Source: a virus
Taxonomy: Duplodnaviria > Caudoviricetes
IMG/VR virus record: IMGVR_UViG_3300025401_000648
Length of the DNA stretch: 64,000 nucleotides
Strand: one strand, 5' to 3'
Shown: in pieces, positions 9,117 to 35,423 of the stretch
Numbering within the stretch: position 1 is the stretch's first letter
Layout of the letters: every line of letters starts with the position of its first letter
Made by a program: the position numbers and the translations under genes
The notes under the pieces: generated by a model
Databases searched by the model: none
Seen by the model: only the letters and a program-made list of their open reading frames with translations
What the model was told of the DNA's origin: nothing

Positions 9117-9121
9117 AAGCC

Positions 9122-12468: not shown

Positions 12469-12500
12469 GTAGGCCTACATATTATTAAAGGAGCGTTGAT

Positions 12501-14240: not shown

Positions 14241-14257
14241 TTGATAAATACTTGACT

Positions 14258-14503: not shown

Positions 14504-14688
14504 ACGTATACTATAACTTTTTCTGTCAGAAACTAAATATTTTTGACAAAAAGATATCAAAAACAGAGTCAACTCTGTCACAAAAAGGCCAAAACGACTG
14601 ATTTTCGGCCTATTTCGCACATCTATTTTAATCTCCCTGTAAATAAAGCTATAGCAATGCCGCTAACCTAACAGGAGAATTAAAAATT

Positions 14689-15705
14689 ATGTCTACAAAA
14701 TTTGAACAACTATTAGACTATCTTGTAAACGAGGATCACGAAAAGGCTAACGAACTTTTCCATGAAATCGTTGTAGAGAAGAGTCGTGAAATTTATGAAA
14801 ACCTTATCGCTGAAGAAGATCAGGATATGGAAGAAGCCCGTGACGAAGATATGGAAGAAGCCGCTGACGAAGATATGGAAGAGTCAGCTGATGACGACAT
14901 GGAAGAAGCCTTTGACGCAGACATGGACGAGTCCGAAGATTCATACATGATGGATAGCGATGAAACTGGCGACGAAACTGACGACTTTGGTGGTGATATT
15001 TCTGCTGATGGCGACAACTTTGACGCTCCAGAGGATGACGAACACGGTCACGAAGGTCAAGAAGACAACGCAATCATGGACATCAAGAACGCCATTGCTG
15101 AACTAGAAGCTGCCTTTGCTGAATTAGAGCAAGCTCAAGGTGAAGAAGAACACGAAATGGGCATGGACGGTGATGACGACATGGACATGGACAGTGATGA
15201 CAAAGAAGATGCTGACGAAGACATGATGGGTATGATGGAAAACCGTCGTATGACACGTGAATACGTTGAGAAAGTCGGTAACGACTGGGAAAAGTCTGGT
15301 ACACAAAAAGCTCAAGGTAAGAACGTTGGTTCTGGATCTGGCGATACAGAAGGTGCCCCAGTAGAAGGCCGTAGCCCAGTAAGTTCTGGTAAAGGTAAGC
15401 CAACAACTGGTGCTGATGCTAAAAATATTGGTCAAGGCGGAGACGAAGGTCAAAGCAACACAGGTACAAGTCCAGGCAAAGTAAATCGTGGTATCACTCC
15501 AGAAAGTGGTGACAAGTTTGCTAAAGAAGCTGGTAATGTTCCAGGTGGAAAAATGGGTGTTAAGAATCTAAAGAAAGTTGGTTCTGGATATCCTAACAAC
15601 AACAAGAATCCAGGTCCAGTAGGTTCTGGCTCAGGCGACAAAGCAGGTCAAACAAGTATTGATCCAGCTACAAAACGTCAATTCTTGCCACAGCATACAA
15701 AATAA
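14689..15705 (+). CDS. Acidic prohead core-like protein
   Basis: Between portal and protease; very D/E/M-rich middle and G/K/S-rich tail; AGGAG RBS and TAAATA at 14640-14645. Confidence 0.6.
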   Translation: MSTKFEQLLDYLVNEDHEKANELFHEIVVEKSREIYENLIAEEDQDMEEARDEDMEEAADEDMEESADDDMEEAFDADMDESEDSYMMDSDETGDETDDFGGDISADGDNFDAPEDDEHGHEGQEDNAIMDIKNAIAELEAAFAELEQAQGEEEHEMGMDGDDDMDMDSDDKEDADEDMMGMMENRRMTREYVEKVGNDWEKSGTQKAQGKNVGSGSGDTEGAPVEGRSPVSSGKGKPTTGADAKNIGQGGDEGQSNTGTSPGKVNRGITPESGDKFAKEAGNVPGGKMGVKNLKKVGSGYPNNNKNPGPVGSGSGDKAGQTSIDPATKRQFLPQHTK

Positions 15706-15718
15706 TTAGAGAGACAGG

Positions 15719-16348
15719 ATGCAATATTCTTACTTACGCGAACATCTAAGTTATGATCAGGCTCAAGTAATTCTTGAGTCTGATGATAAGGACGGCAAAA
15801 ATCTTTATCTAAAAGGTATTGCCATCCAAGGTGGCATTCGTAACGCAAATCAACGTGTTTACCCAGTAGACGAAATTGATCGTGCGGTTAGTACTCTTAT
15901 GGATCAGATTAAAAATGGCTATAGTGTACTAGGTGAAGTTGATCATCCTGACGATTTAAAAGTAAATTTGGATCGTGTGTCCCATATGATAACTCAAATG
16001 TGGATGGAAGGTCCTAATGGTTATGGTAAGATGAAAATTTTACCTACACCGATGGGTAACTTAGTTCGTACTATGCTTGAAAGTGGAGTAAAACTTGGTG
16101 TTAGTTCTCGTGGTAGCGGCAATGTTAACGACATGAACGGCCATGTATCTGATTTCGAGATTATCACAGTAGACGTAGTTGCTCAACCAAGTGCGCCTGG
16201 AGCGTACCCTACTCCTGTTTATGAGCATTTGATGAATGCTCGTGGTGGGAATAGAGCGTTTAGAGTAGCGCAAGAAGTAAAAGAAGATCCAAAGGCCCAG
16301 AAATATTTGAAGGAATCATTACTTCAAATTATTAAAGGTCTAAAATAA
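15719..16348 (+). CDS. gp21: Prohead protease
   Basis: N.NQRVYP, LGEVDHP, SHMIT, GVSSRGSG, FEIITVDVVAQPSAPGAY motifs of the T4 gp21 family. Confidence 0.92.
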   Translation: MQYSYLREHLSYDQAQVILESDDKDGKNLYLKGIAIQGGIRNANQRVYPVDEIDRAVSTLMDQIKNGYSVLGEVDHPDDLKVNLDRVSHMITQMWMEGPNGYGKMKILPTPMGNLVRTMLESGVKLGVSSRGSGNVNDMNGHVSDFEIITVDVVAQPSAPGAYPTPVYEHLMNARGGNRAFRVAQEVKEDPKAQKYLKESLLQIIKGLK

Positions 16349-16364
16349 GCCCGAGGAGAAATAT

Positions 16365-17462
16365 ATGTTGGACGCATTCAAACAATTAGTAGAGTCAGGA
16401 GTAATGACAGAAGACACACGTACTGTCATTGAGTCTGCCTTTGCTGAAAAAATTAAAGAGAATCGCGAACAAGTAACCGCAGAACTTCGTGAAGAGTTTG
16501 CTCAAAAATATAACCAAGATAAAGGTGCTATTGTTGAAGCAGTCGACAAGATGTTAAGCGAGAGATTGCTCGCAGAAATGAGTGAATTGCATGAAGACAA
16601 AAAAGCTCTAGATGAAGCAAAGACAGCATATCGTACAAAGATTGCTGAAGATGCTAAGAAGCTAGAAGGATTTGTAATCACACAATTAGGAAAAGAATTG
16701 GTTGAATTCCAAGGAGACCGTAAAAAAGTATCCGAGAATTTTTCCAAGCTAGAGAGTTTTGTAGTACATGCTCTAGCAAAAGAAATTAGTGAATTTGCCG
16801 CAGACAAGAAGGACCTAGCTGAAACAAAAGTTAAGTTAGTTCGTGAAGCTAAAAACAAATTTGCTGAAATTAAACAAAACTTCATTCAACGTGCTAGTAA
16901 GGTCGTTGAAGGGACTGTTACAACCAAGTTGACATCTGAAATCAAGCAATTGAAAGAAGACATTGACAGTGCTCGTAACAATGACTTTGGTCGTAAGATC
17001 TATGAAGCATTTGCGCAGGAGTTTGCTGGTTCCTATTTAAATGAGAAATCTGAAACAAGTAAATTGTTAAAGATCATTGAAAAGAAAGAACAACAAATTG
17101 CTGAAGCCAAACAAGCCGTAGCAGAAAAAACACAACTAGTAGAATCTACACAACGCGATCTTCGTGTTACTAAAGATCTAATGGAACGTAAAGCTGTTAT
17201 GGGTGAGTTGTTAGCACCATTAGGTGCTGATAAGAGAGATATCATGAAAGAGTTGTTGGAATCCGTTCCAACAAAGAAACTAAATGAGTCTTTCGACAAA
17301 TACCTACCAGCAGTAATGGAAGGACAATCACGTAAAACAGCTCCTAAGAAAGCTATTTTAAGTGAAGGTGCTGAAGTAACTGGAAATCGTGAAGTAAAAG
17401 CCGAGGTAGGCTTAGACAATATTGTTGATATCCGCAAGTTGGCGGGATTAACAAAAATATAA
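16365..17462 (+). CDS. gp22: Prohead core scaffolding protein
   Basis: E/K-rich coiled coil of 365 aa between protease and capsid gene. Confidence 0.8.
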   Translation: MLDAFKQLVESGVMTEDTRTVIESAFAEKIKENREQVTAELREEFAQKYNQDKGAIVEAVDKMLSERLLAEMSELHEDKKALDEAKTAYRTKIAEDAKKLEGFVITQLGKELVEFQGDRKKVSENFSKLESFVVHALAKEISEFAADKKDLAETKVKLVREAKNKFAEIKQNFIQRASKVVEGTVTTKLTSEIKQLKEDIDSARNNDFGRKIYEAFAQEFAGSYLNEKSETSKLLKIIEKKEQQIAEAKQAVAEKTQLVESTQRDLRVTKDLMERKAVMGELLAPLGADKRDIMKELLESVPTKKLNESFDKYLPAVMEGQSRKTAPKKAILSEGAEVTGNREVKAEVGLDNIVDIRKLAGLTKI

Positions 17463-17478
17463 TTCAAGGAGACACAAA

Positions 17479-18657
17479 ATGTCACAACTATTAAATGAAA
17501 GATGGTCAGAGACCAAAGAAGCTCTGCTTGAAGGCCTATCTGGTACACGCCGTGCTTCTATGCAAGTTTGCTTAGAAAACACTCGTAAGTATTTGGCTGA
17601 AAGCGCAACAGCAGGCGCGACAAGCGCTGGTAACGTAGCAACACTTAACCGTGTTATTCTTCCAGTAATCCGTCGTGTTATGCCAACAGTTATTGCCAAC
17701 GAAATCATCGGTGTACAACCAATGACTGGTCCAGTTGGCCAAATTCACACATTGCGTGTTCGTTATGCTGATTCTGGCGATAACGTACAAGCTGGTGAAG
17801 AAGCATTAAGCCCATTCAAGATTGCTAGTGCTTACAGTGGTAACAACACTGACGCTACTCCAGGTGCCGCTCAAACATCATTGCTTGAAGGTCAACCAGG
17901 TAAGCGTATGAGCATTCAAATCTTGAAGAGCCCAGTTGAAGCTAAGTCACGTAAACTAAGCGCTCGCTGGACTTTTGAAGCTGCACAAGATGCACAAAGC
18001 CAACAAGGCATTGACATCGAAGCAGAAATCATGGCTGCTCTAGCACAAGAAATCACAACTGAAATTGATCAAGAAATCCTAGCTTCTCTACGTAGCTTGG
18101 CAAGTGTTGAACAAACATACGATCAAAGTTTAGTTTCTGGTACAGCAACATTCGTTGGTGACGAACATGCTGCCTTAGCTATCCAAATCAACCGTGTTGC
18201 TAACTTAATTGCTCAGCGTACACGTCGTGGTGCTGGTAACTGGGCTGTTGTTTCTAACCAAGCATTGACAATTCTACAATCTGCTACTACTAGCGCATTT
18301 GCTCGTACAACAGAAGGTACATTCGAAGCTCCTACAAACACTAAGTTTGTTGGTACATTGAATGGCGCTATGCGTGTTTATGTTGACGCATACATGACAG
18401 ACACTGGTAACGATAACAACCAAGTTCTAATTGGATACAAAGGTTCTAGCGAAGCAGATGCTGCAGCGTTCTATTGCCCATATATTCCTCTAATGAGCTC
18501 TGGTGTTGTTCTAGATCCAGCAACATTTGAGCCAGTAGTTGGCTTCCTAACACGTTACGGTTACGTAGAACTAAGCAACACTGCTTCTTCTCTAGGTAAT
18601 GCAGCTGACTACTTAGGTAAAGTTGCTATCACTAGCGCAAACGTTTCATTCCAGTAA
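17479..18657 (+). CDS. gp23: Major capsid protein
   Basis: IIGVQPMTGPVGQI, VEAKSRKLSARWT.E.AQD, EI..EIDQEI, YKG..E.DA..FYCPYIPL, FEPVVGF.TRYG. Strong RBS, followed by a terminator. Confidence 0.96.
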   Translation: MSQLLNERWSETKEALLEGLSGTRRASMQVCLENTRKYLAESATAGATSAGNVATLNRVILPVIRRVMPTVIANEIIGVQPMTGPVGQIHTLRVRYADSGDNVQAGEEALSPFKIASAYSGNNTDATPGAAQTSLLEGQPGKRMSIQILKSPVEAKSRKLSARWTFEAAQDAQSQQGIDIEAEIMAALAQEITTEIDQEILASLRSLASVEQTYDQSLVSGTATFVGDEHAALAIQINRVANLIAQRTRRGAGNWAVVSNQALTILQSATTSAFARTTEGTFEAPTNTKFVGTLNGAMRVYVDAYMTDTGNDNNQVLIGYKGSSEADAAAFYCPYIPLMSSGVVLDPATFEPVVGFLTRYGYVELSNTASSLGNAADYLGKVAITSANVSFQ

Positions 18658-18806: not shown

Positions 18807-19709
18807 ATGGGACGTCCAATTAAAAAGAGATTTTTTGTAAGAGGTGGTGGCGCTACACCCACTGATGTAGTTCAATATGAGGGTGTTACAGTCAGTATTA
18901 ATAATACTGGATCACACTATTCTTTAGGTGCTACAGCCAGTGTTTCAGCACCACAAGATGCAGCAGGGGTAACAGCCACTGTAGTTTTAACAGTTACAAC
19001 TACAACAAACGTAGGTGGCGGTTATGGTGGTTTTATCAGTGCCGCAACAATTGCAAATCCAGGTTCTGGATATAACGCAAACCCAACTGTTACAGTTGTT
19101 GCTCCAGCAACTCAAACTGCCACAGTAACAACAAGTTCAACTGCCACTATTACACTAAACGGTGTAAATGGTATCTATGTAGGTATGCAGGCATCAGGAA
19201 CAGGTATTAATGCCTCCACTACTTATGTTACAGCAGTTAATGTAGGTACAAATACAGTTACATTATCAAGAAACAATCAAGCAGGTAGTTTGATTGGTAA
19301 TGTTATCACATTTAGTGATGTTGGTGCTAGTGCTACATTCACAGTTGGTTTAACTCACGTTGAAACAGATACAAATACAATCGCTTGTACAGCTTATCTA
19401 ACAACTGGTTCTAGTGCTGTAAGTTCTGCTATTATCAAACAAGAAGCTGCACATCGTTATCTAGTTGAAAACAACCAAGGTCGTGGTACATGTAAATTAT
19501 CAACCGCCACTGTGTTAACAGCTGGTTTAATGACAATTACTGCTAAAGATACAAGTAATAATGTTTATTTTGTTACAAAATTGACTTCTAAGAAAGCACG
19601 TTTGTGGCAAAAATCTGGTAGCGGCTATTTGTTCAATAACGGACAAACTGTTCACTGGGTAACTGGAACAAACGTAGTTTCAACATTAGTTTCTATTGTA
19701 CTAAACTAA
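18807..19709 (+). CDS. Virion structural protein (possible capsid decoration or fibre)
   Basis: T/V/G/S-rich beta-type 300 aa directly after the capsid gene, with its own late promoter and terminator. Confidence 0.6.
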   Translation: MGRPIKKRFFVRGGGATPTDVVQYEGVTVSINNTGSHYSLGATASVSAPQDAAGVTATVVLTVTTTTNVGGGYGGFISAATIANPGSGYNANPTVTVVAPATQTATVTTSSTATITLNGVNGIYVGMQASGTGINASTTYVTAVNVGTNTVTLSRNNQAGSLIGNVITFSDVGASATFTVGLTHVETDTNTIACTAYLTTGSSAVSSAIIKQEAAHRYLVENNQGRGTCKLSTATVLTAGLMTITAKDTSNNVYFVTKLTSKKARLWQKSGSGYLFNNGQTVHWVTGTNVVSTLVSIVLN

Positions 19710-19723
19710 TATTTGATACTAAT

Positions 19724-19753
19724 ATGAAAAGGGCTCTTGTAGCCCTTTTTCAT
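19724..19753 (+). terminator. Rho-independent terminator
   Basis: ATGAAAAGGGCT-CTTGT-AGCCCTTTTTCAT. Confidence 0.8.
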
Positions 19754-19789
19754 TTTGTGCGTACACAAACAGATTAGGTAAATATTGGT

Positions 19790-20323
19790 ATGAGTACACT
19801 TTGGACATCGCCAACAACTATTACGCAGTATGATGAACCTGGCGCTGAACAAGGTTTAGAATTATCAAATGTTGCTTGGGACGATTCTCAAAATTTTGGT
19901 CAACTGATTTCTAATAGCGGATCATTGACTACTAAAGGACAGCTACAGCATATAGCTCGTGCGCCCAAGGTAGATTTAACAACAAAAACTTTTTATCTAC
20001 GACTTTCTGGATTCAATTTTGTTAATTTACCTGAAGTTCTTTCTGGAATACAACTAAGGCTAACTGCTAATAGGGGAGGACGAGTAACAGATGAAACAAT
20101 TCAACTCTGCCTAAACAATGCTGGCATCGGCGATAATTATGGCACACTTAATCTGGACCCAATAAAATTTTATGGTGGTCCCACAGATTTATGGAAAACG
20201 GAATTGAGTATACAAGATATAGTAGATCCAACATTTGGAGTAATTTTAAGATTCCAAGCACATCCAAGATATCCGCACCGAGACGGGGCCTATATCAACC
20301 ATGTTGAATTACAGATATTCTAA
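19790..20323 (+). CDS. Hypothetical virion protein
   Basis: 177 aa; TAAATA at 19779-19784, 5 nt before the ATG. Confidence 0.65.
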   Translation: MSTLWTSPTTITQYDEPGAEQGLELSNVAWDDSQNFGQLISNSGSLTTKGQLQHIARAPKVDLTTKTFYLRLSGFNFVNLPEVLSGIQLRLTANRGGRVTDETIQLCLNNAGIGDNYGTLNLDPIKFYGGPTDLWKTELSIQDIVDPTFGVILRFQAHPRYPHRDGAYINHVELQIF

Positions 20324-20351: not shown

Positions 20352-23300
20352 ATGACCACTGTAACGGTATCCGGAACTCGAGTACAAACCCCGCAAGGGA
20401 TAACAAATTTATCCGCACCTAATGGCGGAGTTACCATCAGTTCTACTAACACGAACATTACAGGTAACACCAATATAGGCGGAAATACATTTATTTCCAA
20501 CACGCTGACGGTGGCATTACAGAGTACCTTAACTGGACAGGTAAGTATTCTATCTCCCTTGGCTTCTACCGGTACACAATCTGGCGGATTAACAGTTGTT
20601 GGTGGTGTAGGTATTGGCGGTGTAGTGTTTATTGGTAGTAATACTAATGTTGAGGGAAATTTAGATGTACAAGGTGTGACAACTATCACAGGAACATTAG
20701 AAGTTATGGGGTTGCTAAACACAGCCACAACTGCCACAACTGGTATTGTTATTAAGCCTAATTCAGACAACGTTGGTAATCCAATAAATCTTCTTTACAC
20801 AAATACTAACATTTATGACACTGCAGCTCATAGACAGCTAGGTGCTGTATATGTTAATGGTGGTGTTGGCATTGAAAAAGATCTAAACGTAGGTGGATTC
20901 ATCTACGGTCGTATTCAGCAAGCCACTACCTCACAAAGTTTCCAAGTTACCGCCACTAACGTTAATCAAATATTCTATCCAACATTTGCTCAATTTAGTG
21001 CTACAACAACTGGATCTGTTTATAGTCCCAATTATATTGATGATATATCTAGTGGTACTAACACTAGCACAGGTGGATTAACTTATAATCCATTTTTGGG
21101 TCAATTAACATCTGATCAAGTACAGGTAGCCGCTAACTATAATTCAACCAGCACAAATACTGGTGCTTTATTGGTTACTGGTGGTGCTGGTATTGGACAA
21201 GATGTTCATGTTGGTGGTAGAGCCTACGCAGAAGCAGTTTATACAAATTTATTGGCCAGTACACAAGGTGACATTGCTGTCAAACCAGCAGGTCAATTAA
21301 CTGACATTTTTGGTGATATTCGTGTTCGTGGTGTTAATCCTTTAGGTACAGGCCCAGTAGTTACTAATACATTGTATGTAACAATGGACGGTGATGATAC
21401 CAATGATGGTCGTGCTATGGACGCAAGTCGTGCTTGCCGTACCATTGGTGGCGCTATGAAGAGCCCATACTATCAACCAGGTACACAGATTCGAGTTAGT
21501 GCCGGACACTACTTTGAAAATAATCCATTGCCAATGAAGCCATATACCAGCGTTATGGGCAGTGACATTCGTACAACAGAAATTGAACCAATTAATAAGA
21601 CACAGGATTTGTTCCATGTAAATTCTGGTTGCTATTTGGCATTCATGCAGTTCTGTCAAGGACGTAGCGGATTGTTACCAGGTAACTATTATGCCAACGG
21701 CTATAATCGCGGTGCTTATGCTACTGCTTTCCCACCACAAACTGGTGCCAATAGAATTGATCTATTCCACTCACCATATATTCAGAACTGTACAAATCTT
21801 TCTGGACCATGGTTACAAGATGCTAGTCTATTCCAGCCTGATGGCACTGTTCAAGTTCCCATTGCTGTAGGTACTGCTACATGGGTAGCAAACACAACCA
21901 GTATGGTAGTTACTTTAGATCATTCAATATCTACAGGTACTATAGTACAAGGTATGTCAATGAATCAAGGTCCACAGCACAAAGGCTTCTTTGATGCTAG
22001 AACCTTGCTATTGGCTAATATACCATTTTTACAATCTCAAGTTGTTAGCTTTGTTGATCAAACATTTAATAGTGGTAGTTTTTCATATGACCAAGCACAG
22101 TGTTATCGTGACACTGGTTTAATTATTGATGCTATTGGTCTCGATATGTTATATCAAAGTCAAACAGAAACCACATTTGCTGGACTTCAATATTGGAGTC
22201 AAGATGTTGGATACACAGGTCTAATTGCTGAAGAAATTGCCACAACGACCAACGCAATTAGTTATTTTAGCACACTAACATTTGCTATTGCTGATGCGAT
22301 TGACGTAAGCGGAAATTCTTCTAACACACTAAGTAATTTATTTGGCGATATTTTAGAAATTTTGAATGTGGGTCCTGCTGATGCTTTTGGTACTGGCGTT
22401 TCAAATGCCTTTATCACGCCTAGCTTACCATCAACTGACGCAACCACTGTTGCTGTATATAATGCCTTGATTGCGGCTATACCTACTATTGCTTTGGAAA
22501 CTGTTAATTGGATCAATGCCAATAATCCGGGATTTGTTTATAGTACATCTACATGCTATCGAGATGTAGGCTACATGATTCAAAGTGTGGCCTTTGACTT
22601 GTTGACTAATAGCAACTGGCAAAGTATTAAATCTGGAGTTTACTACTACGGGTACGATTCAAGTCTTACAGCTATTCCAAACGAGATATCTCAAACCACA
22701 GTAGCATACGACTACATCAAAGCAATTATACCAAACATTGTACAAGGAAAACAATTAAGTACACAATTTAGTACAGCTACTCAGATTATCAACGGGTATC
22801 TCCCTGCTACTTCTTACGAATCAGCAACGCTTCAAAACAGTATTGATTATCTTACAAGCATTATTACCAACGGCCCAAGTGTGGCCGGAGCACAAGCACC
22901 TATCAATTATAACGAGTCAGGAAATATTGAAGTAATAAATGCTTGGAAATTATTAGAAGCCAATAGAAGTTTTATTCAAGCAGAAGTAGTTGCCTATGTT
23001 GACAGTCAATTCAATACATTCTCATACAATAGAGAATTGTGCTACAGAGATACTGGTATTTTAATTGAAAATGTATCTTATGATGCCACATTTGGCGGCA
23101 ACGCTAAATCTATTGAATCTGGCCTAGCATACTGGAACGGAGCAGTTAGTGTAATTGCTGGTCAACAACCACAGACAGCGGCAGCCATTAACTATCTAAA
23201 TTCACTGTGCCAACAAGTTATTACTAATACTACATGTACCATACTTGCCCCAGTATATGGAATATCATCTGGAACACAAGTCATCAACACTGTGTTGAAT

Positions 23301-26300
23301 CAAGGAGCAGTGGCCAGTTCTAGTATTGCTTCATGTTTTAATATTATCAGTACAATTATACAGAATGGACCAACTGCCGCACCTGAATCATTTAGTAGTA
23401 GTGCAGCTGATGCCGCATATCTAAGTGCTGAAGTATTGATGCAATTAAACAGAAAATTCATCCAGGAAGATACAATCAACTGGATTAACAATACCTTCCA
23501 AGCCTTCCCATATAATAAAGTAAAATGTGAAAGAGATATTGGAGTTGTTCTAAATTCTGTAATAGAAGATGTTTTATTCCCAACTAGTTCTTTCAGTCAA
23601 AGCACATTTGCTGGGCTACAATACTACAGTCAAAGCACAAGTACACAGTCGATTATACCTAACGAAATTAATCAAACAATAGAGGCTGTGGCGTACCTAA
23701 GCGATCTAAGTGCTAAAATTGTACAAAATATTACACCAGCAGATGATTTAGTGGCACGTTATCAAACAGCGGTTCCACAAGTCACTAATTTAACTCCAGC
23801 CAATGCTGCCGAAGCAGCCATTGTACAGGCAAACTACAATAATATTTTAAAAATATTAAATGGTCAAACCACTGGTTGGACTGATCAATTAGAATTTGGA
23901 TTCACAGCCAGCAGATTTTTAAGTGTCAAAAATGCCTATGCCTTATTACAGGCCAATAAAGCATATTTAGAAGCTGAAGTTGTGGCCTATATTAACGCAA
24001 CCAATCCTGGATTTAGTACTACATATAATCAAGCAACTTGTAAGAGAGACATTGGTTATATGACAGACTGTGTAAGTTTTGATTTGCTATATGGTGGTAA
24101 CAAACAAAGTATCCAAGCAGGTTTATACTACTATGGTTTCATAAGCACAGTGTCTAACATTGCGAATGAATCCACACAAACAGTAGCGGCATTTACATAC
24201 ATGTCAAACTTGGTTGGCGAAGTTATACAAAATATTCCTGTTATAGCATTGTCTACAGCTACACAAAATTTAGTGGCAGCGCCAGCAGTTACAAACACAG
24301 CAACGATTAATTTGTTTGCTCAGGCATTTAGTACCATAACAAATATTATTACTAATGGACCAAGTGTTGCCGCTGACGCAAGTCCTATTAGTCTAGTTGA
24401 AACAACATCAACTGATGCGCTAAATGCCCTAACAATTCTACAAGCTAACCTTAGCTTTATTCAAGCTGAAGTTTTACAATATATTGATAATGCTTATCAA
24501 TCAGTGCCTTATACCTACAACACCACAACATGTTATAGAGATACTGGGTTAATTATTGACAGCATTGCCACAGACATGTTGTACGATAGCATAAGCGAAA
24601 GTACATTTGCTGGCCTACAATATTGGAATCAAGGCGGTCTGACTGGATTAATTGGTGTTGAATTGACAACAACCACAGCGGCAATTAACTTTGCTAACTC
24701 ATTGACAGTGGCATTAATATCAGATACTGATGCGCAAGCAACTGTAACTGGATTGTTTAATCAAATTACATCCATATTAAATGGCGGAACAGCTGGAATT
24801 ACGGATCAAATAACTAGTAATGGCTTACCAAGCACAACTGGTACTATTGTCACGGCCTATAACACAATTCAAAACAATATTGCGTCAATACAGCAACAGA
24901 CTATAAATTGGATCAATTATACATATCCGTCATTTGTTTATAGTACATCAACTTGCTATAGAGACCTTGGTTATATTTTAAACAGTGTGAGTTTTGACCT
25001 ATTACACGGCGGTAACAAGCAAAGCATTAAATCTGGTGCTTACTACTATTCTTATATTTCCACAAGTAGTCAGGTATCTACAGAAATGCCTGAAGTTATT
25101 GCGGCTTATGATTTTGTTTCTGATCTAGTTCGTTATGTAGTACTGGCTGAGCCAGCACCTAGAGTATTCCAAACTGGCACTGTTCAGGTAACTACCTTGC
25201 CGGCAGCTACTAATGATGAAGTAGGTACCTTACAAGGTAATTTAACTGTTATCACTGATATTATCAGTAATGGTCCATCGGCAGCAGGGCCAAAATTACC
25301 AATTGGACAAACAATAGATTCAAATCCAAATGTTCTAAATGCCTACAATCTATTGGAAGCCAACAGATCATTTATACAAGAAGAAACAATAGCATTTATA
25401 AATGGCACATTTGTAAGGCCTGGTCCATCATTTAGTTATAATGAAGATCTATGCTACAGAGATACAGGATTAATTGTTGATGCTGTTTCGCAAGATGTAT
25501 TATTAGGTGGTAATCAGAAGTCTATCGAAGCTGGACTAGCATATTGGAATCAAGGTTACAATTATGTAACTGGACAAGAAACTACTACCACTTTAGCGAT
25601 TAGCCATGCTAGGGATTTAGCACTGAAAATTATTTCTAATGAACCAATAGTTGCTCAACCACAGACTGAAACTAAACAAATAATAAATCCGTTTTATAGT
25701 TATGGAAGCGCCTATATGCCTAAACAGGCAGTGGCTAGAAGTTTTAATATTGTAACAGATATTATTAATCGTGGGCCACTGTATGCTCCTATTTTATATC
25801 CAGGTAGCGGGTTAGTTAATACAACTGGATTAAATGCTTTAGATGTACAGATTGCTCCTAAGGTAACTAGTGTACAACAATTGACATCAAATACTTACTT
25901 GATAGGTATGAGTACATCAACAGTGGGATTTGGTGATTATGCTACACTATATTTTGGTGACACTTACATATGGCCTCTACAGGATCCTCAGGTTGAAGCA
26001 CTAGCACTTCAGTACACAGGTCATACTGGTACATGGGATCTACGTAAATTTGACCCAATTGGTGGTATGGGCGGATCTTTAGTTGACGGTGCTGTTATTA
26101 GTGATCGTAGTCCAATTCAATCTTTTGTTTATGATGCGTTTACACAATTGACACAAGGTGGTCGTGGTGTACATATTACCAATGATGGTTACGCACAGTT
26201 AGTTTCTGTGTTCACAATCTTCTCCAGTGTGGGTGTTCAAGTCGACAATGGCGGTATTGCTTCTATTGTTAACAGTAACGCTAACTTTGGTGATCTTTGC

Positions 26301-28820
26301 TTGGTTGCCAAAGGTTACGGGCTACGTAAATTCAGCGGTACTGTTTATAATCCTGCCTACATTGCTTACCCATATAGCCCAGGTCCAACTGGTTTAAATC
26401 AATACTATCCACAAGGCTTCTGGCCAAAGAACAGTAATGTTGAAATTTTCATTCCAGATCCTACTAATCGTCCGCACATATCATTGGTTATGGAAGTTGT
26501 ACCTCCAACTGAGTATATTAACTATGCTGGCAATGTTGTTCCGTACACAAACAGTCAAGGCTTCCCAGGATTCCTAAATGCTCAACCAAGTACAAGTACT
26601 ATAACAACTGGCAGTATCACAATCAATAACATTGATATAACCGGCATTGCTGTGGGCAATTTTGTATATATTACGGATCAATTTGGTTACACATACGATA
26701 GTTTCCCGTATGTTCATGATGAATTTGGTCGTTACTTAGATAGTAACGGTAATATAACCACCACAGTAACTAACTATATACCAAATGCGAATTACGGTAT
26801 TCAATATTTCACAACAGGTACCTATGTTACTGATGTCAACTATCAAAGTGTAACATTCAATTACGCTCTACCAACTGGCGGCGGATTTGCAGATAACCCT
26901 AACTATTTTACTTTCTACTTCTGTGGCAAGGCCTACTACACAGTATTGAGTAGTATTGTAGCAGACAATCCATATGTGACTGGTACAAATATTCTTTCTA
27001 CCAGCAATAGAAATATCACAGTGGATCAAGTAGAGGCACATATTAATTCATTAGAGTTTTTGAATGAGTTGGTTGATAATATTACAGGTAACATACCTGT
27101 ACAGACTATCCAAACTGGAACACAAACAAGTACACAAACATTCTTGTTAACGGTTCAAGGGGGAGCCGATGCTAACACATTCATTGATCTAAGATTCAAT
27201 GAAATGATAACAATCATTGGAGCCACATCAAGTACATATAACACAGTAGTGCCACCAAATCTAGTAAAGACATCTGGTACAATTCCACAAGGAGCAGGTA
27301 GTGCTATATCTCTAATAGAAGCAAATATGAGTTTCTTAGAAGATGAAATATCAGCATTTGTGGAAACATTGACCAATACCAGTACATTCTCATATAATCA
27401 AACAACATGTGCACGTGATTTGGGCTATGTTCTAAATGGCACATACTATGATGTTGCTCTTGGCACAAACTATAATGGTGTGACATCTGGTCTTGCTTAT
27501 GCTCGCGGTACTGCGTATGCTGTTACAGCAACTGAATTAGTAGCAACAATTAATGCTTATGATTTTGCTCAGCAACAAGCGGCGCAAGCATTGGCTAGCA
27601 ATGCTACAGCAGTGGCAAGAAGCACTGCCGAGTTTGATGAAATTAAAAATATTCTAGCTAATGGAGCGTCAGTGGCAAATGTTGTTACTTTCCCTGCTCC
27701 TACAAACGCTACAACTTCAACCATAAACGCTGTAGCACAATTAACTTCTAACAAGTCATTCCTACAATCTGAAATAATTGCTTGGATCGCAGCCAACTAT
27801 TCATATCTAACATATAATAGTGCGGCATGTTATCGAGATGTCGGTTTCCTAATTGACGCCATGTGTTATGATGTTATGTACGGTGGAAATAGTGCCACAC
27901 TAATTGCCGCTAACGCATACTTTAACAGCGCAGGACAGCTGGTAATCGCAGGCAGTGAAACAGCGGCTACCAGTGCGGCCTACTATTACTTGTCGCAAAT
28001 AGCTCAAAATGTTGTTTTAGGACAAACAGTAACACCGAGTGCTGGAAATACCCAAACGCAAAGTCAAAACGGTAATTACGGATCCAGTACACAAACAGGT
28101 CAAATATCCAATAATTTTGTCATAATTTACAGTGCCATTCAAAATGCCACTCCACCCACAGCCACACAAGTCAACCCTGATTTGTCATGGGTAGATTCTG
28201 GTATATTGGCCGCCGCCAATTATTTGGCAAGCCAACAAACAACTATTATAAATGACACAATTAGTTACATTAATACATCGTTTAACACAGGCCCCGGTAG
28301 CAATCAAATTAAATTGACTCCTGCTCAAGCATTGAAATGTAAGCGAGATATTGGTGTTACCCTACAAAGATTAATCTATGATTTAGAAACTGGGGGTAAT
28401 TACAACAGTGTACAGGTTGGATTAAGCTATTGGGCACAGGATGGTACTCATCATCTTGTGAGTTTAGGTGAAAATGTAACAGATGCTACATTATTCCCAG
28501 ATGGAGCAACAGTAAACTTCTATCAACGCAGTTACATTAGTGCGTCTGGATATGTATTTGAATATGTGGGTGCTGGCACTAACTACGGTGCTTTACCACA
28601 GTTTGGTATTGCTGATCCAGTACAGACTAAAGAAACTGTACAATTAGATACAGGTAAGGTGTTCTTTACCTCAACTGACCAAAACGGTGACTTCCGTATT
28701 GGTCCAGGGTTAGTTATCAGTCAAGCAACGGGTGTTCTAAGCGGTAGAACATTTACTAAATCGCTATTTGCTAATTTGACTCCATTTATCTTAGCAATTG
28801 AAGGCGGCGGAACATTCTAA
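20352..28820 (+). CDS. Giant virion structural protein with a split beta-helix-like region and 11 phycobiliprotein-like helical repeats
   Basis: 2822 aa. N-terminal fibre-like GAL.V.GG.G repeats, LYVTMDGDDTNDG beta-helix entry motif, 11 C-x-R-D-x-G repeats. TAAATA at 20329-20334. Confidence 0.8.
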   Translation: MTTVTVSGTRVQTPQGITNLSAPNGGVTISSTNTNITGNTNIGGNTFISNTLTVALQSTLTGQVSILSPLASTGTQSGGLTVVGGVGIGGVVFIGSNTNVEGNLDVQGVTTITGTLEVMGLLNTATTATTGIVIKPNSDNVGNPINLLYTNTNIYDTAAHRQLGAVYVNGGVGIEKDLNVGGFIYGRIQQATTSQSFQVTATNVNQIFYPTFAQFSATTTGSVYSPNYIDDISSGTNTSTGGLTYNPFLGQLTSDQVQVAANYNSTSTNTGALLVTGGAGIGQDVHVGGRAYAEAVYTNLLASTQGDIAVKPAGQLTDIFGDIRVRGVNPLGTGPVVTNTLYVTMDGDDTNDGRAMDASRACRTIGGAMKSPYYQPGTQIRVSAGHYFENNPLPMKPYTSVMGSDIRTTEIEPINKTQDLFHVNSGCYLAFMQFCQGRSGLLPGNYYANGYNRGAYATAFPPQTGANRIDLFHSPYIQNCTNLSGPWLQDASLFQPDGTVQVPIAVGTATWVANTTSMVVTLDHSISTGTIVQGMSMNQGPQHKGFFDARTLLLANIPFLQSQVVSFVDQTFNSGSFSYDQAQCYRDTGLIIDAIGLDMLYQSQTETTFAGLQYWSQDVGYTGLIAEEIATTTNAISYFSTLTFAIADAIDVSGNSSNTLSNLFGDILEILNVGPADAFGTGVSNAFITPSLPSTDATTVAVYNALIAAIPTIALETVNWINANNPGFVYSTSTCYRDVGYMIQSVAFDLLTNSNWQSIKSGVYYYGYDSSLTAIPNEISQTTVAYDYIKAIIPNIVQGKQLSTQFSTATQIINGYLPATSYESATLQNSIDYLTSIITNGPSVAGAQAPINYNESGNIEVINAWKLLEANRSFIQAEVVAYVDSQFNTFSYNRELCYRDTGILIENVSYDATFGGNAKSIESGLAYWNGAVSVIAGQQPQTAAAINYLNSLCQQVITNTTCTILAPVYGISSGTQVINTVLNQGAVASSSIASCFNIISTIIQNGPTAAPESFSSSAADAAYLSAEVLMQLNRKFIQEDTINWINNTFQAFPYNKVKCERDIGVVLNSVIEDVLFPTSSFSQSTFAGLQYYSQSTSTQSIIPNEINQTIEAVAYLSDLSAKIVQNITPADDLVARYQTAVPQVTNLTPANAAEAAIVQANYNNILKILNGQTTGWTDQLEFGFTASRFLSVKNAYALLQANKAYLEAEVVAYINATNPGFSTTYNQATCKRDIGYMTDCVSFDLLYGGNKQSIQAGLYYYGFISTVSNIANESTQTVAAFTYMSNLVGEVIQNIPVIALSTATQNLVAAPAVTNTATINLFAQAFSTITNIITNGPSVAADASPISLVETTSTDALNALTILQANLSFIQAEVLQYIDNAYQSVPYTYNTTTCYRDTGLIIDSIATDMLYDSISESTFAGLQYWNQGGLTGLIGVELTTTTAAINFANSLTVALISDTDAQATVTGLFNQITSILNGGTAGITDQITSNGLPSTTGTIVTAYNTIQNNIASIQQQTINWINYTYPSFVYSTSTCYRDLGYILNSVSFDLLHGGNKQSIKSGAYYYSYISTSSQVSTEMPEVIAAYDFVSDLVRYVVLAEPAPRVFQTGTVQVTTLPAATNDEVGTLQGNLTVITDIISNGPSAAGPKLPIGQTIDSNPNVLNAYNLLEANRSFIQEETIAFINGTFVRPGPSFSYNEDLCYRDTGLIVDAVSQDVLLGGNQKSIEAGLAYWNQGYNYVTGQETTTTLAISHARDLALKIISNEPIVAQPQTETKQIINPFYSYGSAYMPKQAVARSFNIVTDIINRGPLYAPILYPGSGLVNTTGLNALDVQIAPKVTSVQQLTSNTYLIGMSTSTVGFGDYATLYFGDTYIWPLQDPQVEALALQYTGHTGTWDLRKFDPIGGMGGSLVDGAVISDRSPIQSFVYDAFTQLTQGGRGVHITNDGYAQLVSVFTIFSSVGVQVDNGGIASIVNSNANFGDLCLVAKGYGLRKFSGTVYNPAYIAYPYSPGPTGLNQYYPQGFWPKNSNVEIFIPDPTNRPHISLVMEVVPPTEYINYAGNVVPYTNSQGFPGFLNAQPSTSTITTGSITINNIDITGIAVGNFVYITDQFGYTYDSFPYVHDEFGRYLDSNGNITTTVTNYIPNANYGIQYFTTGTYVTDVNYQSVTFNYALPTGGGFADNPNYFTFYFCGKAYYTVLSSIVADNPYVTGTNILSTSNRNITVDQVEAHINSLEFLNELVDNITGNIPVQTIQTGTQTSTQTFLLTVQGGADANTFIDLRFNEMITIIGATSSTYNTVVPPNLVKTSGTIPQGAGSAISLIEANMSFLEDEISAFVETLTNTSTFSYNQTTCARDLGYVLNGTYYDVALGTNYNGVTSGLAYARGTAYAVTATELVATINAYDFAQQQAAQALASNATAVARSTAEFDEIKNILANGASVANVVTFPAPTNATTSTINAVAQLTSNKSFLQSEIIAWIAANYSYLTYNSAACYRDVGFLIDAMCYDVMYGGNSATLIAANAYFNSAGQLVIAGSETAATSAAYYYLSQIAQNVVLGQTVTPSAGNTQTQSQNGNYGSSTQTGQISNNFVIIYSAIQNATPPTATQVNPDLSWVDSGILAAANYLASQQTTIINDTISYINTSFNTGPGSNQIKLTPAQALKCKRDIGVTLQRLIYDLETGGNYNSVQVGLSYWAQDGTHHLVSLGENVTDATLFPDGATVNFYQRSYISASGYVFEYVGAGTNYGALPQFGIADPVQTKETVQLDTGKVFFTSTDQNGDFRIGPGLVISQATGVLSGRTFTKSLFANLTPFILAIEGGGTF
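22040..28440 (+). repeat. Eleven C-x-R-D-x-G protein repeats
   Basis: Cys codons at 22101, 22554, 23040, 23526, 24039, 24531, 24954, 25452, 27408, 27828 and 28338. Confidence 0.9.
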
Positions 28821-28834
28821 TAAAAGGATAAATC

Positions 28835-29215
28835 ATGGCACAGTTACCATTAAATACGTTTAGATCAATGACAGCGGTATTGACCACAAGCTCAAGCACA
28901 ATTTATGTTGCTCCGGTTGGAGTAACCAGCATTGTACTAATGGCTCAGATATCAAATATAAGTACACAGACTACTGGGGTCAGTCTTATACATCATAGAA
29001 ACATTCCTATTCAGCAGAACGCACAAGGAAACAATGCTCAACCAGGCAACGTTGACAGCTATCTAATTGATCAGTTTGCTTTACCAACTAATGATGCGGC
29101 CAACGTATTGAGCGGTAAATTGATCATCGAAGCGCTGGACAGCATTAAGGCTTGGAGTACATCTCCAAATTCTGCTCAATTAGTTATGAGTATTTTGGAA
29201 AGTTCTAACGGTTAA
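28835..29215 (+). CDS. Small virion protein, probable partner of the giant protein
   Basis: 126 aa, AAAGGA RBS, beta-rich (IYVAPVGVTSIVLMAQISN), directly after the 2822-aa gene. Confidence 0.7.
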   Translation: MAQLPLNTFRSMTAVLTTSSSTIYVAPVGVTSIVLMAQISNISTQTTGVSLIHHRNIPIQQNAQGNNAQPGNVDSYLIDQFALPTNDAANVLSGKLIIEALDSIKAWSTSPNSAQLVMSILESSNG

Positions 29216-29230
29216 TATAGGAATAAAATC

Positions 29231-31594
29231 ATGGCAGCATTATTAAGCGGTGGCACATTAAGATCGGGTAGTACAAGTACATTTATTACCCTTAAAGGCG
29301 CACAGCCTCAGTTGCCTGCCACCCCTACTACCAGCACTGGCTTTACACTTATAACTTATCTTAAACCACCAAGTGAATTAGATACTATCTATGCTAGTAG
29401 CTTAGGCAATATTGAATTTAACACTGGCACAATGTATGCGAATATTCCTAATATGAACATACAAATTATTGGTACAGGCACTGGCACTGTAATTGTTTCA
29501 GGTACTGTGGCCAATACTGGCACAAACAGCGGAGTACTTGTTGTACAAGGTGGTATTGGTATATCACAAGGTTTCTATACTGGGGCCGATGTCAACATCA
29601 ATGGACTAACCGTTGGACAAGGTTATAGTAATACACAGAGTGGCGGCGGCATTAACAATATATCTATTTTTGGTATAGCCACACCTTCATCTAATTCTTA
29701 TCCTAATGGACAGGATAATATAAACATTGGATACAGTAGTCTACAGGGAATCAGTTCAGCATATCAAAGTATTGCTATAGGTCGATATGCCGCTAGTTCA
29801 GGCACACAATTACAAAATACCATAGCTATTGGTGACAGTGCCTTAAAGAACATCGGCACTACACAAACACAATTTGCTGGTTTTATTACATCTGCCACAC
29901 AGGCCGTCCCAGTAGTATTGACTGTGGCCAATCATGAATTGACATCTGGTACACCAATTAATGTTGATTATGTTTTAGGTATGACTGAAGTCAACGGTAA
30001 TAATTATTATGCCAAAGTGTTGTCCTCTTCCACAGTGGCTTTATATCTAGACAATATTTTAGGTACTCCGCTTGATGGACGAAACTTCAGTACATATACT
30101 AGTGGCGGCACATTATCTATTGATTTGGTATGGAATAATAATTTTGCGATTGGAACAAGTGCTGGTGTTAATCTTACCAACGGAACGGAAAACTTTTTCT
30201 TAGGTTATAACATTGCCAAAAACTTTACCACTGGCAGTTACAACTTCTTCTTAGGACATGATATTGCCCAAAACATGAAGAGTGGCAATAGTAATATATC
30301 AATTGGCGGTGATAACCTAGTTGATGGATTAAACAACCAAGTTAACATTGGATCAGTATTTTACTATAATGGTGCTGGATATCTACAACTTAACGCAGAT
30401 ACTGGTGTTGGATTGGGCGAATCTGCTACAAATACTCCAATAACAGCCACAATTAGTGCGATTTCTACAGGTACACAAACTGTTATTACCACAGTAGCGC
30501 CTCACGGTATTGTTACTGATCAGTATATTACAATTACAGGTGTAAATGGAACCACACAGTTAAACAATCAATCGTTTTATGTGCGTGTGACTGCTACAAA
30601 TTCTTTGTTATTGTTTACTGATGTGGATTTACAGGTGCCATTGAACAGTAGTAGTTATTCACATTATACCAACGGCGGTACTGTAACATTAAACAATATT
30701 GTTGGAGCACTGTCCGTACTGGGTGGTGTAGCAATTACTAAAAATTTATTAGTTGGCGGCCCAATCAATGTATTAAATTACACAGAGTCTAGCTCAATTA
30801 ACACAGGATCTTTGGTAGTCAACGGCGGTGTTGGTATTGCTGGAAACGTAAATATTGGCCGCGGATTAACAATAAACGGTCCAACTGATGTTAATATTTC
30901 ACCAGCAGGAGCAACTGTTTACCTAGAGCCCACAGTGGGCGGCAGTGTTCAGATCTATCCAAGTGTTACCACTGGTAATATTAATAATATGAATATTGGT
31001 AACGCTGTTCCAGCATGGGGCACATTTACCAATGTACGTATTACTTCAAATACTTCTGCTACAAGTTTAGGCACTGGCGCATTAATTGTAAACGGCGGTG
31101 CTAGTGTTAGCGGAGACTTCTGGTTAGGCGGAATCTTACACGCCAGTATCAGTGGCGGAGCAGGTCAAGCCAATAATATTGCTGGAGGTACCGCAGGCGC
31201 ATTAGTATATCAAGTGGCCAGCAGTTCTACTGGGTTTATCACCATTGGTCCAAGCAATTCTGTATTAATATCAAACGGCTCTAATCCTTTATGGTCAAAT
31301 ACACTTACTGTAACAACTCTTAATGTTGTTGGGACAGCCACATCAACCAGTACAACAACTGGTGCGGTTACTGTAGTAGGTGGCGTTGGAGTACAGGGGA
31401 ATATTTACAGTGCTGACGGTAATCCGCAACAAAATTATTTGTTGTATACACCAAAAGTCACCGTAACTGGTACTGGAATCCCACCAGCAAACCCAAATAT
31501 AGGAGATTTTTGGATTGATACCGTGGCCGGTGGACAGCTACAATACATTCAAGATGGAACCAGTACATTCTGGATCCAGATAACAACAATTTAA
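29231..31594 (+). CDS. Tail fibre/spike-like structural protein
   Basis: 787 aa. N..IG..AL-type repeats as in trimeric adhesin heads, two similar beta modules (V.TVANHELTSG / ITTVAPHGIVTD), G.L.V.GG.G repeats, C-terminal P.NPNIGDFWIDT motif. Confidence 0.7.
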   Translation: MAALLSGGTLRSGSTSTFITLKGAQPQLPATPTTSTGFTLITYLKPPSELDTIYASSLGNIEFNTGTMYANIPNMNIQIIGTGTGTVIVSGTVANTGTNSGVLVVQGGIGISQGFYTGADVNINGLTVGQGYSNTQSGGGINNISIFGIATPSSNSYPNGQDNINIGYSSLQGISSAYQSIAIGRYAASSGTQLQNTIAIGDSALKNIGTTQTQFAGFITSATQAVPVVLTVANHELTSGTPINVDYVLGMTEVNGNNYYAKVLSSSTVALYLDNILGTPLDGRNFSTYTSGGTLSIDLVWNNNFAIGTSAGVNLTNGTENFFLGYNIAKNFTTGSYNFFLGHDIAQNMKSGNSNISIGGDNLVDGLNNQVNIGSVFYYNGAGYLQLNADTGVGLGESATNTPITATISAISTGTQTVITTVAPHGIVTDQYITITGVNGTTQLNNQSFYVRVTATNSLLLFTDVDLQVPLNSSSYSHYTNGGTVTLNNIVGALSVLGGVAITKNLLVGGPINVLNYTESSSINTGSLVVNGGVGIAGNVNIGRGLTINGPTDVNISPAGATVYLEPTVGGSVQIYPSVTTGNINNMNIGNAVPAWGTFTNVRITSNTSATSLGTGALIVNGGASVSGDFWLGGILHASISGGAGQANNIAGGTAGALVYQVASSSTGFITIGPSNSVLISNGSNPLWSNTLTVTTLNVVGTATSTSTTTGAVTVVGGVGVQGNIYSADGNPQQNYLLYTPKVTVTGTGIPPANPNIGDFWIDTVAGGQLQYIQDGTSTFWIQITTI

Positions 31595-31604
31595 AGGCAA
31601 AGAC

Positions 31605-32450
31605 ATGACAACATTAGGTTTTCCAATTTATGCTTCCGGTACAAATGTCGGAGCAACCTATACCCTAAACGGGGTAACCTATACGTGGAATGGTTATGCT
31701 TGGTACAAAACCAACCAAGGTCCAATCAATGCTACCACAGTGACTGGCGGCACCATAGTTATTGGAACGGGCACACAGACTGTTATTATTAATAATGGAA
31801 ATATAACTATCAACGGAAGTAGCGTGTTAACAACAAGTTCGTTAATATCGGTATTTTCATCTGGCACAGACATTTCAATTGTCTATAACACTCTAACACA
31901 AAAAATTGTTGTTAGCGATACATCTACTTTCCAAACTGTTATTAATCGTGGCGCAACCACAACTAACATTGTAACATTTGCCAATACCACTAATTCTGTA
32001 AGTACTATATCAGGAGCCGTGGTGGTAACTGGCGGTGTAGGTATTGGTGGGGATGTCTATATGGCCGGTACCCTAAATGCGGAACATATCCAAATAGCTC
32101 ACGCTGTTTTTGATACATCGGCAACTATAGTCACAACAGCATTGCCTGCCTTGATTGATTCTTATCCTGTAACACAATTTAGAAGCGCAAAATATCTAGT
32201 CCAAATAGATGATACAAACAATAATAGTTACCAAGTAAGTGAACTATTGATGCTAGTGGCCAACACTGGCACAGGTTGGTATGGTACTAGCCTGCTTGAA
32301 TACGGTATTAATACCAATGGAGGTGAAATCGGACAATTTAGTAGCCAGGTAAATACTGCTACGAACCCGCCGACAGCTGAATTATATATAACCATGTACG
32401 GTCAATCATACAAAACTGTCCAGGTTCTAAGAACTGCGATTACACCTTAA
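31605..32450 (+). CDS. Fibre-associated structural protein
   Basis: 281 aa; its C-terminal domain (IDSY...FRSAKYLVQ...EYG) is shared with the next gene. Confidence 0.7.
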   Translation: MTTLGFPIYASGTNVGATYTLNGVTYTWNGYAWYKTNQGPINATTVTGGTIVIGTGTQTVIINNGNITINGSSVLTTSSLISVFSSGTDISIVYNTLTQKIVVSDTSTFQTVINRGATTTNIVTFANTTNSVSTISGAVVVTGGVGIGGDVYMAGTLNAEHIQIAHAVFDTSATIVTTALPALIDSYPVTQFRSAKYLVQIDDTNNNSYQVSELLMLVANTGTGWYGTSLLEYGINTNGGEIGQFSSQVNTATNPPTAELYITMYGQSYKTVQVLRTAITP

Positions 32451-32461
32451 CGGAAAATACT

Positions 32462-35362: not shown

Positions 35363-35367
35363 CCACA

Positions 35368-35420
35368 TTTTCCTTTTCACGCTAAATATAGCGTAACCAG
35401 CCGTTACGTGGAAAGGGAAA
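35368..35420 (+). promoter_or_regulatory. RBS-sequestering hairpin with a late promoter in its loop
   Basis: 35369-35381 pairs with 35407-35420 (13 bp, one bulge, one G-U), covering the GGAAAGGGAAA RBS; TAAATA at 35383-35388. Confidence 0.65.
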
Positions 35421-35423
35421 CTA

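Follow-up and report, generated by a model that had tools for sequence, protein, structure and literature searches.

Phycobiliprotein-like repeats in a putative giant fibre protein of a freshwater jumbo phage

Introduction

Why would a phage structural protein carry, eleven times over, the residues with which phycobiliproteins hold their chromophore? The question is raised by a gene for a protein of 2822 amino acids (aa) in a 64,000-nucleotide stretch (the window) of the IMG/VR virus record IMGVR_UViG_3300025401_000648 (Duplodnaviria; Caudoviricetes). At the phycobiliprotein site, the Cys of a C-x-R-D motif forms a thioether to a linear tetrapyrrole (bilin), the Asp hydrogen-bonds the pyrrole nitrogens, and the Arg holds a propionate. 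A sequence-only reading of the gene proposed 11 phycobiliprotein-like domains, each a globin-like unit, that together may form a pigmented antenna on the virion (for protection against UV and reactive oxygen, light sensing or host mimicry), and knew of no described system of this kind. Here, the relationship of these repeats to phycobiliproteins, their predicted packing, and their association with bilin-related genes in other phages were examined computationally.

Sequence relationship of the repeats to phycobiliproteins

We found C-x-R-D 11 times in the protein, every copy as C-x-R-D-x-G, where 0.017 copies are expected from composition; no other copy exists in any of the six frames of the window. 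All 11 Cys residues listed by the sequence-only reading were recovered, as were its spacings (140–171 aa, with a single 652-aa gap) and its four example strings. When aligned, the 11 stretches form one repeat family of ~160 aa with pairwise identities of 18–43%, and the residues C, R, D, G, a further D and a Y never vary. A hidden Markov model (HMM) of the repeat recovers 11 of 11 copies at about E 1e-37 to 1e-57, in blocks of eight and three. There are 22 Cys residues in the whole protein, half of them (11) in the motif. Single- and three-repeat AlphaFold models predict the repeats to be helical, in agreement with their appearance in the sequence.

Only one Pfam family, PF00502, is matched by the whole protein (30.8 bits versus a curated cut-off of 22.2, E 3.4e-7), with a score that is the sum over several weak stretches; taken singly, the repeats of this protein reach 12.8–15 bits (E 0.025–0.1). 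When 72 diverse repeats were scanned, 15 matched PF00502 individually (best E 7.8e-5), and the other 37 families listed were matched by one repeat each. Repeat profiles were also compared with all PDB sequences. With profile A1, 35 of the 37 matches at E ≤ 10 are phycobiliproteins (best E 0.0015), and with profile A2 this is true of all 21 matches at E ≤ 1 (best E 0.0027). The profile alignments cover helix A/B through helix E with matching spacing, beyond the motif alone, and keep the GG at +18/+19 after the motif. HMMER aligns C-x-R-D to Cys84/Arg86/Asp87 (K-C-A-R-D-I-G-Y) of phycocyanin alpha, the very site that had been proposed, and repeat 11 matches phycocyanin alpha residues 37–104 directly in phmmer. 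Identity between the repeats and phycobiliproteins is ~15–20%. A feature search of the ESM Atlas with one repeat gave low recognition and returned unrelated domains of unknown function.

The protein as a whole matches PHROG tail-fibre families (phrog_5342, E 9e-88; phrog_4527, E 3e-81; phrog_17885, E 2e-47), and its gene sits in the virion module, between the major head protein gene (17479–18657) and further giant fibres and the tail sheath. These matches and this position point to a fibre-type virion protein, presumably located on the particle.

Predicted fold and chain-swapped packing

The AlphaFold model of a single repeat (aa 1638–1802) is mediocre, with a predicted template modelling score (pTM) of 0.47. 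In a Foldseek search of the PDB, all 50 matches listed are phycobiliproteins, with helices in the phycobiliprotein order, but at E 0.1–1.1 and template modelling (TM) scores of 0.21–0.32. VIA-align of the same model gave helical hairpins only (Z ≤ 5.2) and no superposition on phycobiliproteins.

A model of three repeats (aa 1333–1805) is confident (predicted local distance difference test, pLDDT, 89.8; pTM 0.75). When it was compared by VIA-align with 48,161 PDB representatives, the top seven matches were all phycobiliproteins, at Z 15.1 to 12.2 over 113–149 residues at 2.0–3.5 Å. The best is the phycoerythrin chain 5aqd_M (Z 15.1, 149 residues at 3.0 Å), and the others include far-red allophycocyanin (8or7_A, Z 13.9), the bilin domain of ApcE (4xxi_A, Z 13.2) and other chains of the phycobilisome core. 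They are followed, at Z 8–11, by heme globin sensors, RsbR and photocobilin globins. Foldseek of the three-repeat model returned unrelated membrane transporters only, with TM scores of about 0.1. Superposition on the phycocyanin-type fold, which the sequence-only reading led one to expect of every repeat, is thus obtained with three repeats and not with one.

Coevolution accounts for this difference. A mean-field analysis was made of 1301 consecutive-repeat pairs from 125 homologues (effective number of sequences, Meff, 928). The strongest coupling overall is between helices of neighbouring repeats, G(n) and B(n+1), with further couplings of H(n) to A(n+1) and H(n) to F(n+1); within a repeat, B is coupled to E, G to H, and E to F. 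Because classic globin contacts (B/G, A/H, F/H, B/E and G/H) in this way couple G and H of one repeat with A, B, E and F of the next, the couplings indicate that each globin-like unit is built from two neighbouring repeats rather than from one, and that the array is chain-swapped, effectively a circularly permuted string. A single repeat does not contain a whole unit, and its model therefore fails to superpose. Nearly every fold match of the three-repeat model spans model residues about 12 to 473, as would result if the orphan half-units at its two ends had been joined; the high-Z match probably uses a unit closed artificially from these ends.

Compared with phycobiliprotein subunits (C-phycocyanin alpha, phycoerythrin, allophycocyanin, the ApcE bilin domain; PF00502), the phage repeats share the A-B-E-F-G-H globin-like helices, Cys-x-Arg-Asp at the start of helix E, GG at its end, and a unit of ~160 aa. 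They lack the N-terminal X-Y hairpin: the ~20 residues before helix A are mostly non-helical in both AlphaFold models, and the profile alignments begin at about residue 25–35 of phycocyanin alpha. Further, phycobiliproteins have one domain per chain, whereas 11 chain-swapped copies (9–24 in homologues) follow one another in a single phage chain, which is a structural protein encoded by a genome with no detected photosynthesis genes. Since the profile score, the fold and the C-x-R-D triad all agree, the repeats are members of the bilin-binding globin superfamily, and not canonical light-harvesting subunits. We consider it very probable that they are homologous to phycobiliprotein-like bilin-binding globins.

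Family size and motif conservation

The protein has more than 1191 homologues among metagenome proteins, of 2200–4300 aa, many of them flagged as PF00502 by precomputed scans. The 125 homologues that were fetched have 9–24 repeats each (median 18). Across 1217 full-length repeats from these proteins, conservation reaches 99% for the motif Cys and 100% for Arg and Asp. A Tyr and a second Asp (+11 relative to the motif Asp) are likewise invariant, and no column with at least 60% conservation is a His. Stand-alone relatives with a single domain (90–290 aa) were sought, and nothing but fragments from short contigs came up.

Of the isolated phages, only cyanomyoviruses were found to have the domain, apart from one uncultured marine virus (88 records altogether); the proteins concerned are giant and carry the annotations gp7, short tail fibre or structural protein. 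The giant baseplate or 'short tail fibre' proteins of T4-like cyanophages (P-HM1 gp7, S-PM2 p088 and p218) have the same CxRD repeat and PHROG families, and the motif is kept in the repeats of P-HM1 and S-PM2. They differ from the jumbo phage proteins in having fewer copies (two to five each), embedded in other domains, and in their cyanobacterial hosts; their link is to cpeT, not to heme oxygenase and reductase genes. In the papers searched, including one jumbo-phage review, we found no description of this domain in phage structural proteins.

A comparable cellular system does exist, and was overlooked when the array was judged to be without parallel. Bilin biosynthesis-associated globins (BBAGs) of heterotrophic bacteria (Rockwell, Martin and Lagarias 2023, PMC10151467) are, like the phage repeats, phycobiliprotein paralogues outside photosynthesis, and BBAG-1 and BBAG-3 share the CXRD motif, according to their published description. 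CXRD-bearing BBAGs self-assemble with bilins and need no lyase (PMC10151467). BBAGs occur in genomes that encode a heme oxygenase and a bilin reductase; some relatives with the phage repeats also have both genes, but far from the fibre gene. In contrast to the phage domains, which are arrayed in a putative virion fibre, BBAGs are single-domain cellular proteins encoded beside the reductase gene.

Bilin genes in jumbo phage relatives

Genomic correlates of bilin binding were sought in the relatives. Phages are known to carry auxiliary cassettes of hemO with pcyX or pcyA (and in some cases alaS), and the studies of these cassettes identified no protein that accepts the phage-made bilin in phages of heterotrophs (PMC11480375). 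The same kind of cassette, a heme oxygenase gene adjoining a reductase gene, was found in relatives that encode the giant protein. In G001 (322,512 bp with terminal repeats), the sole complete relative, a heme oxygenase (58.5 bits) adjoins a ferredoxin-dependent bilin reductase (60.2 bits), and both genes are present in four of the six relatives' contigs of at least 200 kb (G001, G083, G084 and G086), all of which have the giant protein, through which these six contigs were found. Starting instead from the reductase, six of ten reductase-bearing viral contigs of at least 90 kb carry the repeats. The reductases of the relatives are ~223–250 aa long, and their nearest isolate match is the reductase of pelagiphage Mosig (40% identity). 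In G001, the repeats lie ~160 kb from the bilin genes. Contig G085 has neither bilin gene; it comes from a sister sample of that of G086, with the same giant-protein size and repeat counts, and may be the same phage or a close relative, less complete.

Neither an S-type nor a T-type lyase (CpeS/CpeT) was found in eight jumbo phage records, which would fit a lyase-free attachment as in CXRD-bearing BBAGs. No bilin reductase was found in 37 fragmentary relatives, all ≤33% complete and hence uninformative. The 120 reductase homologues listed all lie on contigs other than those with the giant protein, and most of these contigs are short.

One contig with heme oxygenase and reductase genes, G067, was considered as a companion of the present genome. 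Its sample also contains a 99% copy of the window, its content of G and C is similar, it is collinear with G001, and it does not overlap G000; the link was not established.

The bilin genes of G001 belong to a minus-strand run (piece 24000–42000, within-piece positions 8227–14549) in which the heme oxygenase and reductase genes overlap slightly, and which also encodes ClpS, Hsp20, a metallophosphatase, an Rv2179c-like exoribonuclease, an HNH endonuclease and a ClpX-like ATPase. The gene order in G067 is the same as in this run.

The repeat, cpeT and adsorption in cyanomyoviruses

Among ~459 cyanomyovirus records, 66 have cpeT and 88 have the repeat. At least 49 of the 60 cpeT records listed also carry the repeat, versus 12.3 expected (hypergeometric P about 3e-28, uncorrected for phylogeny). 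In 18 named phages, cpeT lies 1.5–6.5 kb upstream of the repeat matches. The cpeT gene of S-PM2 is located between gp5 and gp12, with p218 following 1.45 kb downstream on the same strand.

In the S-PM2 extract (AJ630128.1), cpeT occupies 2453–2980 and the gene for the 3779-aa repeat protein p218 occupies 4429–15768, inside the baseplate/tail-fibre module, with a 2OG-Fe(II) oxygenase gene between the two. At 7057–11884 of this extract, 16 tRNA features are annotated within the p218 coding sequence and bear its locus tag, which looks like a coordinate error in the deposited annotation. In Synechococcus phage Sf-FP1 (PV340854.1, 19469–27637), cpeT (19469–19993) and a repeat protein (26534–27637) lie within about 8 kb; a protein annotated as hypothetical in the same ~8 kb (21169–21726) has a weak bilin-reductase-like match.

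Three cyanophages, P-HM1, P-HM2 and S-PM2, need light to adsorb, and this need does not depend on host photosynthesis (PMC6628666). 'Light-sensitive tail fibres' have been proposed, and tail fibres may be part of the mechanism (PMC6628666). We found that all three carry the repeat and that the dark-adsorbing P-SSM2 and P-SSP7 do not, a correlation among five phages, two of them close kin, that is a lead only.

A bilin-carrying fibre and its alternatives

Taken together, motif conservation, bilin genes in large relatives and the cpeT linkage in cyanomyoviruses lend indirect support to a bilin on the virion, and leave that reading evenly balanced between true and false. According to this proposal, the fibre would be a chain of bilin-binding-globin domains, each unit keeping Cys-x-Arg-Asp at the start of helix E, and each unit would be loaded with a single linear tetrapyrrole while the virion is assembled. 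Jumbo phages would make the bilin themselves, with their heme oxygenase and ferredoxin-dependent bilin reductase, and it would attach by self-assembly as in BBAGs; in cyanomyoviruses, the phage CpeT lyase would attach bilins taken from the host. On such a particle, every fibre chain would bear roughly a dozen bilins or more. That the bilin is covalently bound to the virion fibre is, in our judgement, a claim with an even chance of being correct.

The most likely use of such a pigment would be light-dependent control of fibre conformation or adsorption, followed by a photoprotective or structural role as a cofactor. Both fit better than an antenna, which is unlikely since the phage shows no photosynthesis genes. 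A specific form of this idea, that virion-borne biliprotein fibres act as light sensors, so that absorbed light changes the fibre and adsorption takes place only in light, is rather doubtful at present. Of the sequence-only reading, the kinship of fold and sequence holds, the one-unit-per-repeat layout and the lack of any comparable system do not, and the antenna is unlikely.

Several observations weigh against a bilin on the particle. To our knowledge, no coloured or pigmented phage particles have been reported; 100–200 bilins per particle, by rough estimate, would be hard to see by eye in ordinary preparations. The structural comparison is affected by the failure of the single repeat to superpose and by the probable artificial closure of the three-repeat unit. 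In the available 44% of the present genome, heme oxygenase, bilin reductase, CpeT and CpeS were not found, and sequencing runs that contain the complete window do not list G067 (only two runs contain both). Among the relatives, G082 (332 kb, 93% complete) has CxRD in 17 of 17 repeats and neither heme oxygenase nor reductase, and G001 has both bilin genes yet CxRD in only four of seven repeats. Pelagiphage Mosig has heme oxygenase and reductase genes but no repeat, and the repeat was likewise not found in P-SSM2, which carries ho1 and pebS; such genes therefore also serve other ends. The co-occurrence figures for cpeT and for the bilin genes are uncorrected for phylogeny, and the set of phages with contrasting adsorption is small. 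Finally, T-type lyases are known for the Cys153/155 site, not for a Cys84-type site (PMC10452541).

The strongest alternative is that the repeat is a pigment-free structural module, a descendant of a phycobiliprotein-like globin that now serves only as a rigid helical spacer in the fibre, with Cys, Arg and Asp kept for folding or assembly, e.g. to cap a helix or to form a salt bridge or, in the extracellular particle, a disulfide between chains. The fold relationship by itself needs no ligand, and an interlocked chain of repeats is what one would look for in a structural rod. Such a spacer would also suit the 17 intact motifs of G082 alongside its missing bilin genes, the lack of a lyase in all eight jumbo phage records, and the invariant Asp (+11) and Tyr, which have no phycocyanin counterpart and look family-specific. 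However, 99–100% retention of exactly the three chromophore-contacting residues, in proteins that are 25–40% identical, would be unusual if the role were purely structural. The single conserved Cys per repeat, with few other Cys residues in the protein, also speaks against it, and the linkage to bilin-synthesis genes and to cpeT would be left unexplained. We regard the spacer as a real possibility that falls somewhat short of even.

A different ligand is improbable. In that case, the pocket would hold heme or another tetrapyrrole, or the domains would recognize the host surface, with different chemistry at the Cys; globin-coupled sensors (heme) and photocobilin globins are indeed among the fold matches, at Z 10–11, and the tail-fibre context suggests receptor binding. 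However, none of the columns conserved at 60% or more is a His that could act as heme ligand, and the closest matches, by sequence as well as by fold, are bilin proteins rather than heme globins. Further, the CxRD triad is a bilin signature (PMC10151467).

Chance or convergence, in which an unrelated helical repeat shares a short motif with phycobiliproteins, is the least credible explanation of all: the weak single-domain E-values of this protein's repeats (0.025–0.1), Foldseek E-values of 0.1–1 and the middling Z scores that helical models often give would allow it, but Pfam, profile-to-PDB search and structure alignment independently point to one family and no other, and the alignment covers helices A/B and E with matching spacing, not the motif alone.

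Gene layout and genomic setting

The features of the gene are listed in Table 1. A Pfam scan of the non-repeat parts gave no match, and a beta-helix reading of these parts could not be confirmed. Query positions 821–869, in the N-terminal region, form a 49-nucleotide match to a cyanophage gene for a 'YadA domain-containing structural protein'.

Table 1 Features of the giant protein gene (window positions).
Feature	Position (nt)	Strand	Residues	Basis or remark
Whole gene, putative fibre-type virion protein	20352..28820	+	2822 aa	Open frame, PHROG tail-fibre matches, structural-module position
N-terminal region, Gly/Thr/Asn-rich	20352..21926	+	1–525	No family match
First array, 8 tandem phycobiliprotein-like repeats	21927..25757	+	526–1802	HMM domains E 1e-47 to 1e-57
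C-x-R-D, repeat 1	22101..22112	+	Cys584	
C-x-R-D, repeat 2	22554..22565	+	Cys735	
C-x-R-D, repeat 3	23040..23051	+	Cys897	
C-x-R-D, repeat 4	23526..23537	+	Cys1059	
C-x-R-D, repeat 5	24039..24050	+	Cys1230	
C-x-R-D, repeat 6	24531..24542	+	Cys1394	
C-x-R-D, repeat 7	24954..24965	+	Cys1535	
C-x-R-D, repeat 8	25452..25463	+	Cys1701	Best single-repeat PF00502 alignment, profile positions 24–139 of 155
Central non-repeat region, between the arrays	25758..27212	+	1803–2287	Best phrog_5342 stretch, aa 1924–1989
Second array, 3 repeats	27213..28622	+	2288–2757	HMM domains E 1e-38 to 1e-49
C-x-R-D motifs of second array	starts 27408, 27828, 28338	+	Cys2353, Cys2493, Cys2663	
C-terminal domain common to phage tail-fibre families	28623..28820	+		phrog_3442 and phrog_17885 align to aa 2718–2817 with their C-terminal profile ends

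By the segment after the motif, repeats 1–8 of the first array fall into three sequence flavours (TFAGLQYW, SIKSGVYYY and SIESGLAYW) in the order A B C A B A B C, which suggests a higher-order period of two or three repeats. The flanks of this array (about 21370–21930 and 25758–27212; SPYIQNCT... before it, GGSLVDG...VNSNANFG after it) resemble, by eye, the halves of one beta-rich domain, and Pfam gives no support for this. The eight-repeat array may be an insertion, its two orphan half-units pairing to close a loop.

The source record is a contig of 156,630 bp, an estimated 44% of the genome. Upstream of the giant protein gene are genes for a portal, a prohead protease, a family that is possibly a scaffold, and a gp23-type major head protein; downstream are a tail-spike-like gene, genes for a 2435-aa collagen-like fibre and a 2152-aa fibre, and the tail sheath gene. 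The head maturation protease, the next gene and the major head protein gene (15719–18657) show ~69% DNA identity to Rak2-like jumbo phages of Erwinia, Pectobacterium, Cronobacter and other enterobacteria. The repeat domain has no match in the Rak2-like isolates that share these head genes. The giant-protein gene is present in many freshwater and lake metagenomes, and no RNA run is among the sequencing runs listed as containing the window. No psbA was found in five relatives, and no pmoC was found when kinship with the published peat-bog pmoC phages was checked. The phage is a jumbo myovirus from fresh water whose head is Rak2-like, and not an obvious cyanophage.

The 2435-aa protein (35424–42731) has a long collagen-like centre that matches several collagen-like tail-fibre PHROGs (aa about 1170–1690); collagen repeats also occur elsewhere in this genome and in G001. 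In the 2152-aa fibre (42768–49226), the C-terminal 120–330 aa match tail-fibre tip families, including the long-tail-fibre distal-subunit family.

Implications

The giant proteins extend a known fold, that of phycobiliproteins, by a previously undescribed and very large branch that is chain-swapped and occurs in a new setting. A real pigment would make this a new kind of system, and if bilin-bearing fibres also acted as light sensors, they would be the first case of a pigment, and of a photoreceptor, on a virus particle. Phages that apparently infect heterotrophs encode working heme oxygenase and bilin reductases (PMC11480375). Light-sensing fibres that carry bilins would offer one answer to why phages of non-phototrophs make bilins, to what phage CpeT acts on, and to how cyanophage adsorption can depend on light without host photosynthesis. 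These three open questions would become directly testable with cultured phages (S-PM2, P-HM1 and P-HM2). Even without pigment, the family bears on the origin of phycobiliproteins outside cyanobacteria (PMC10151467).

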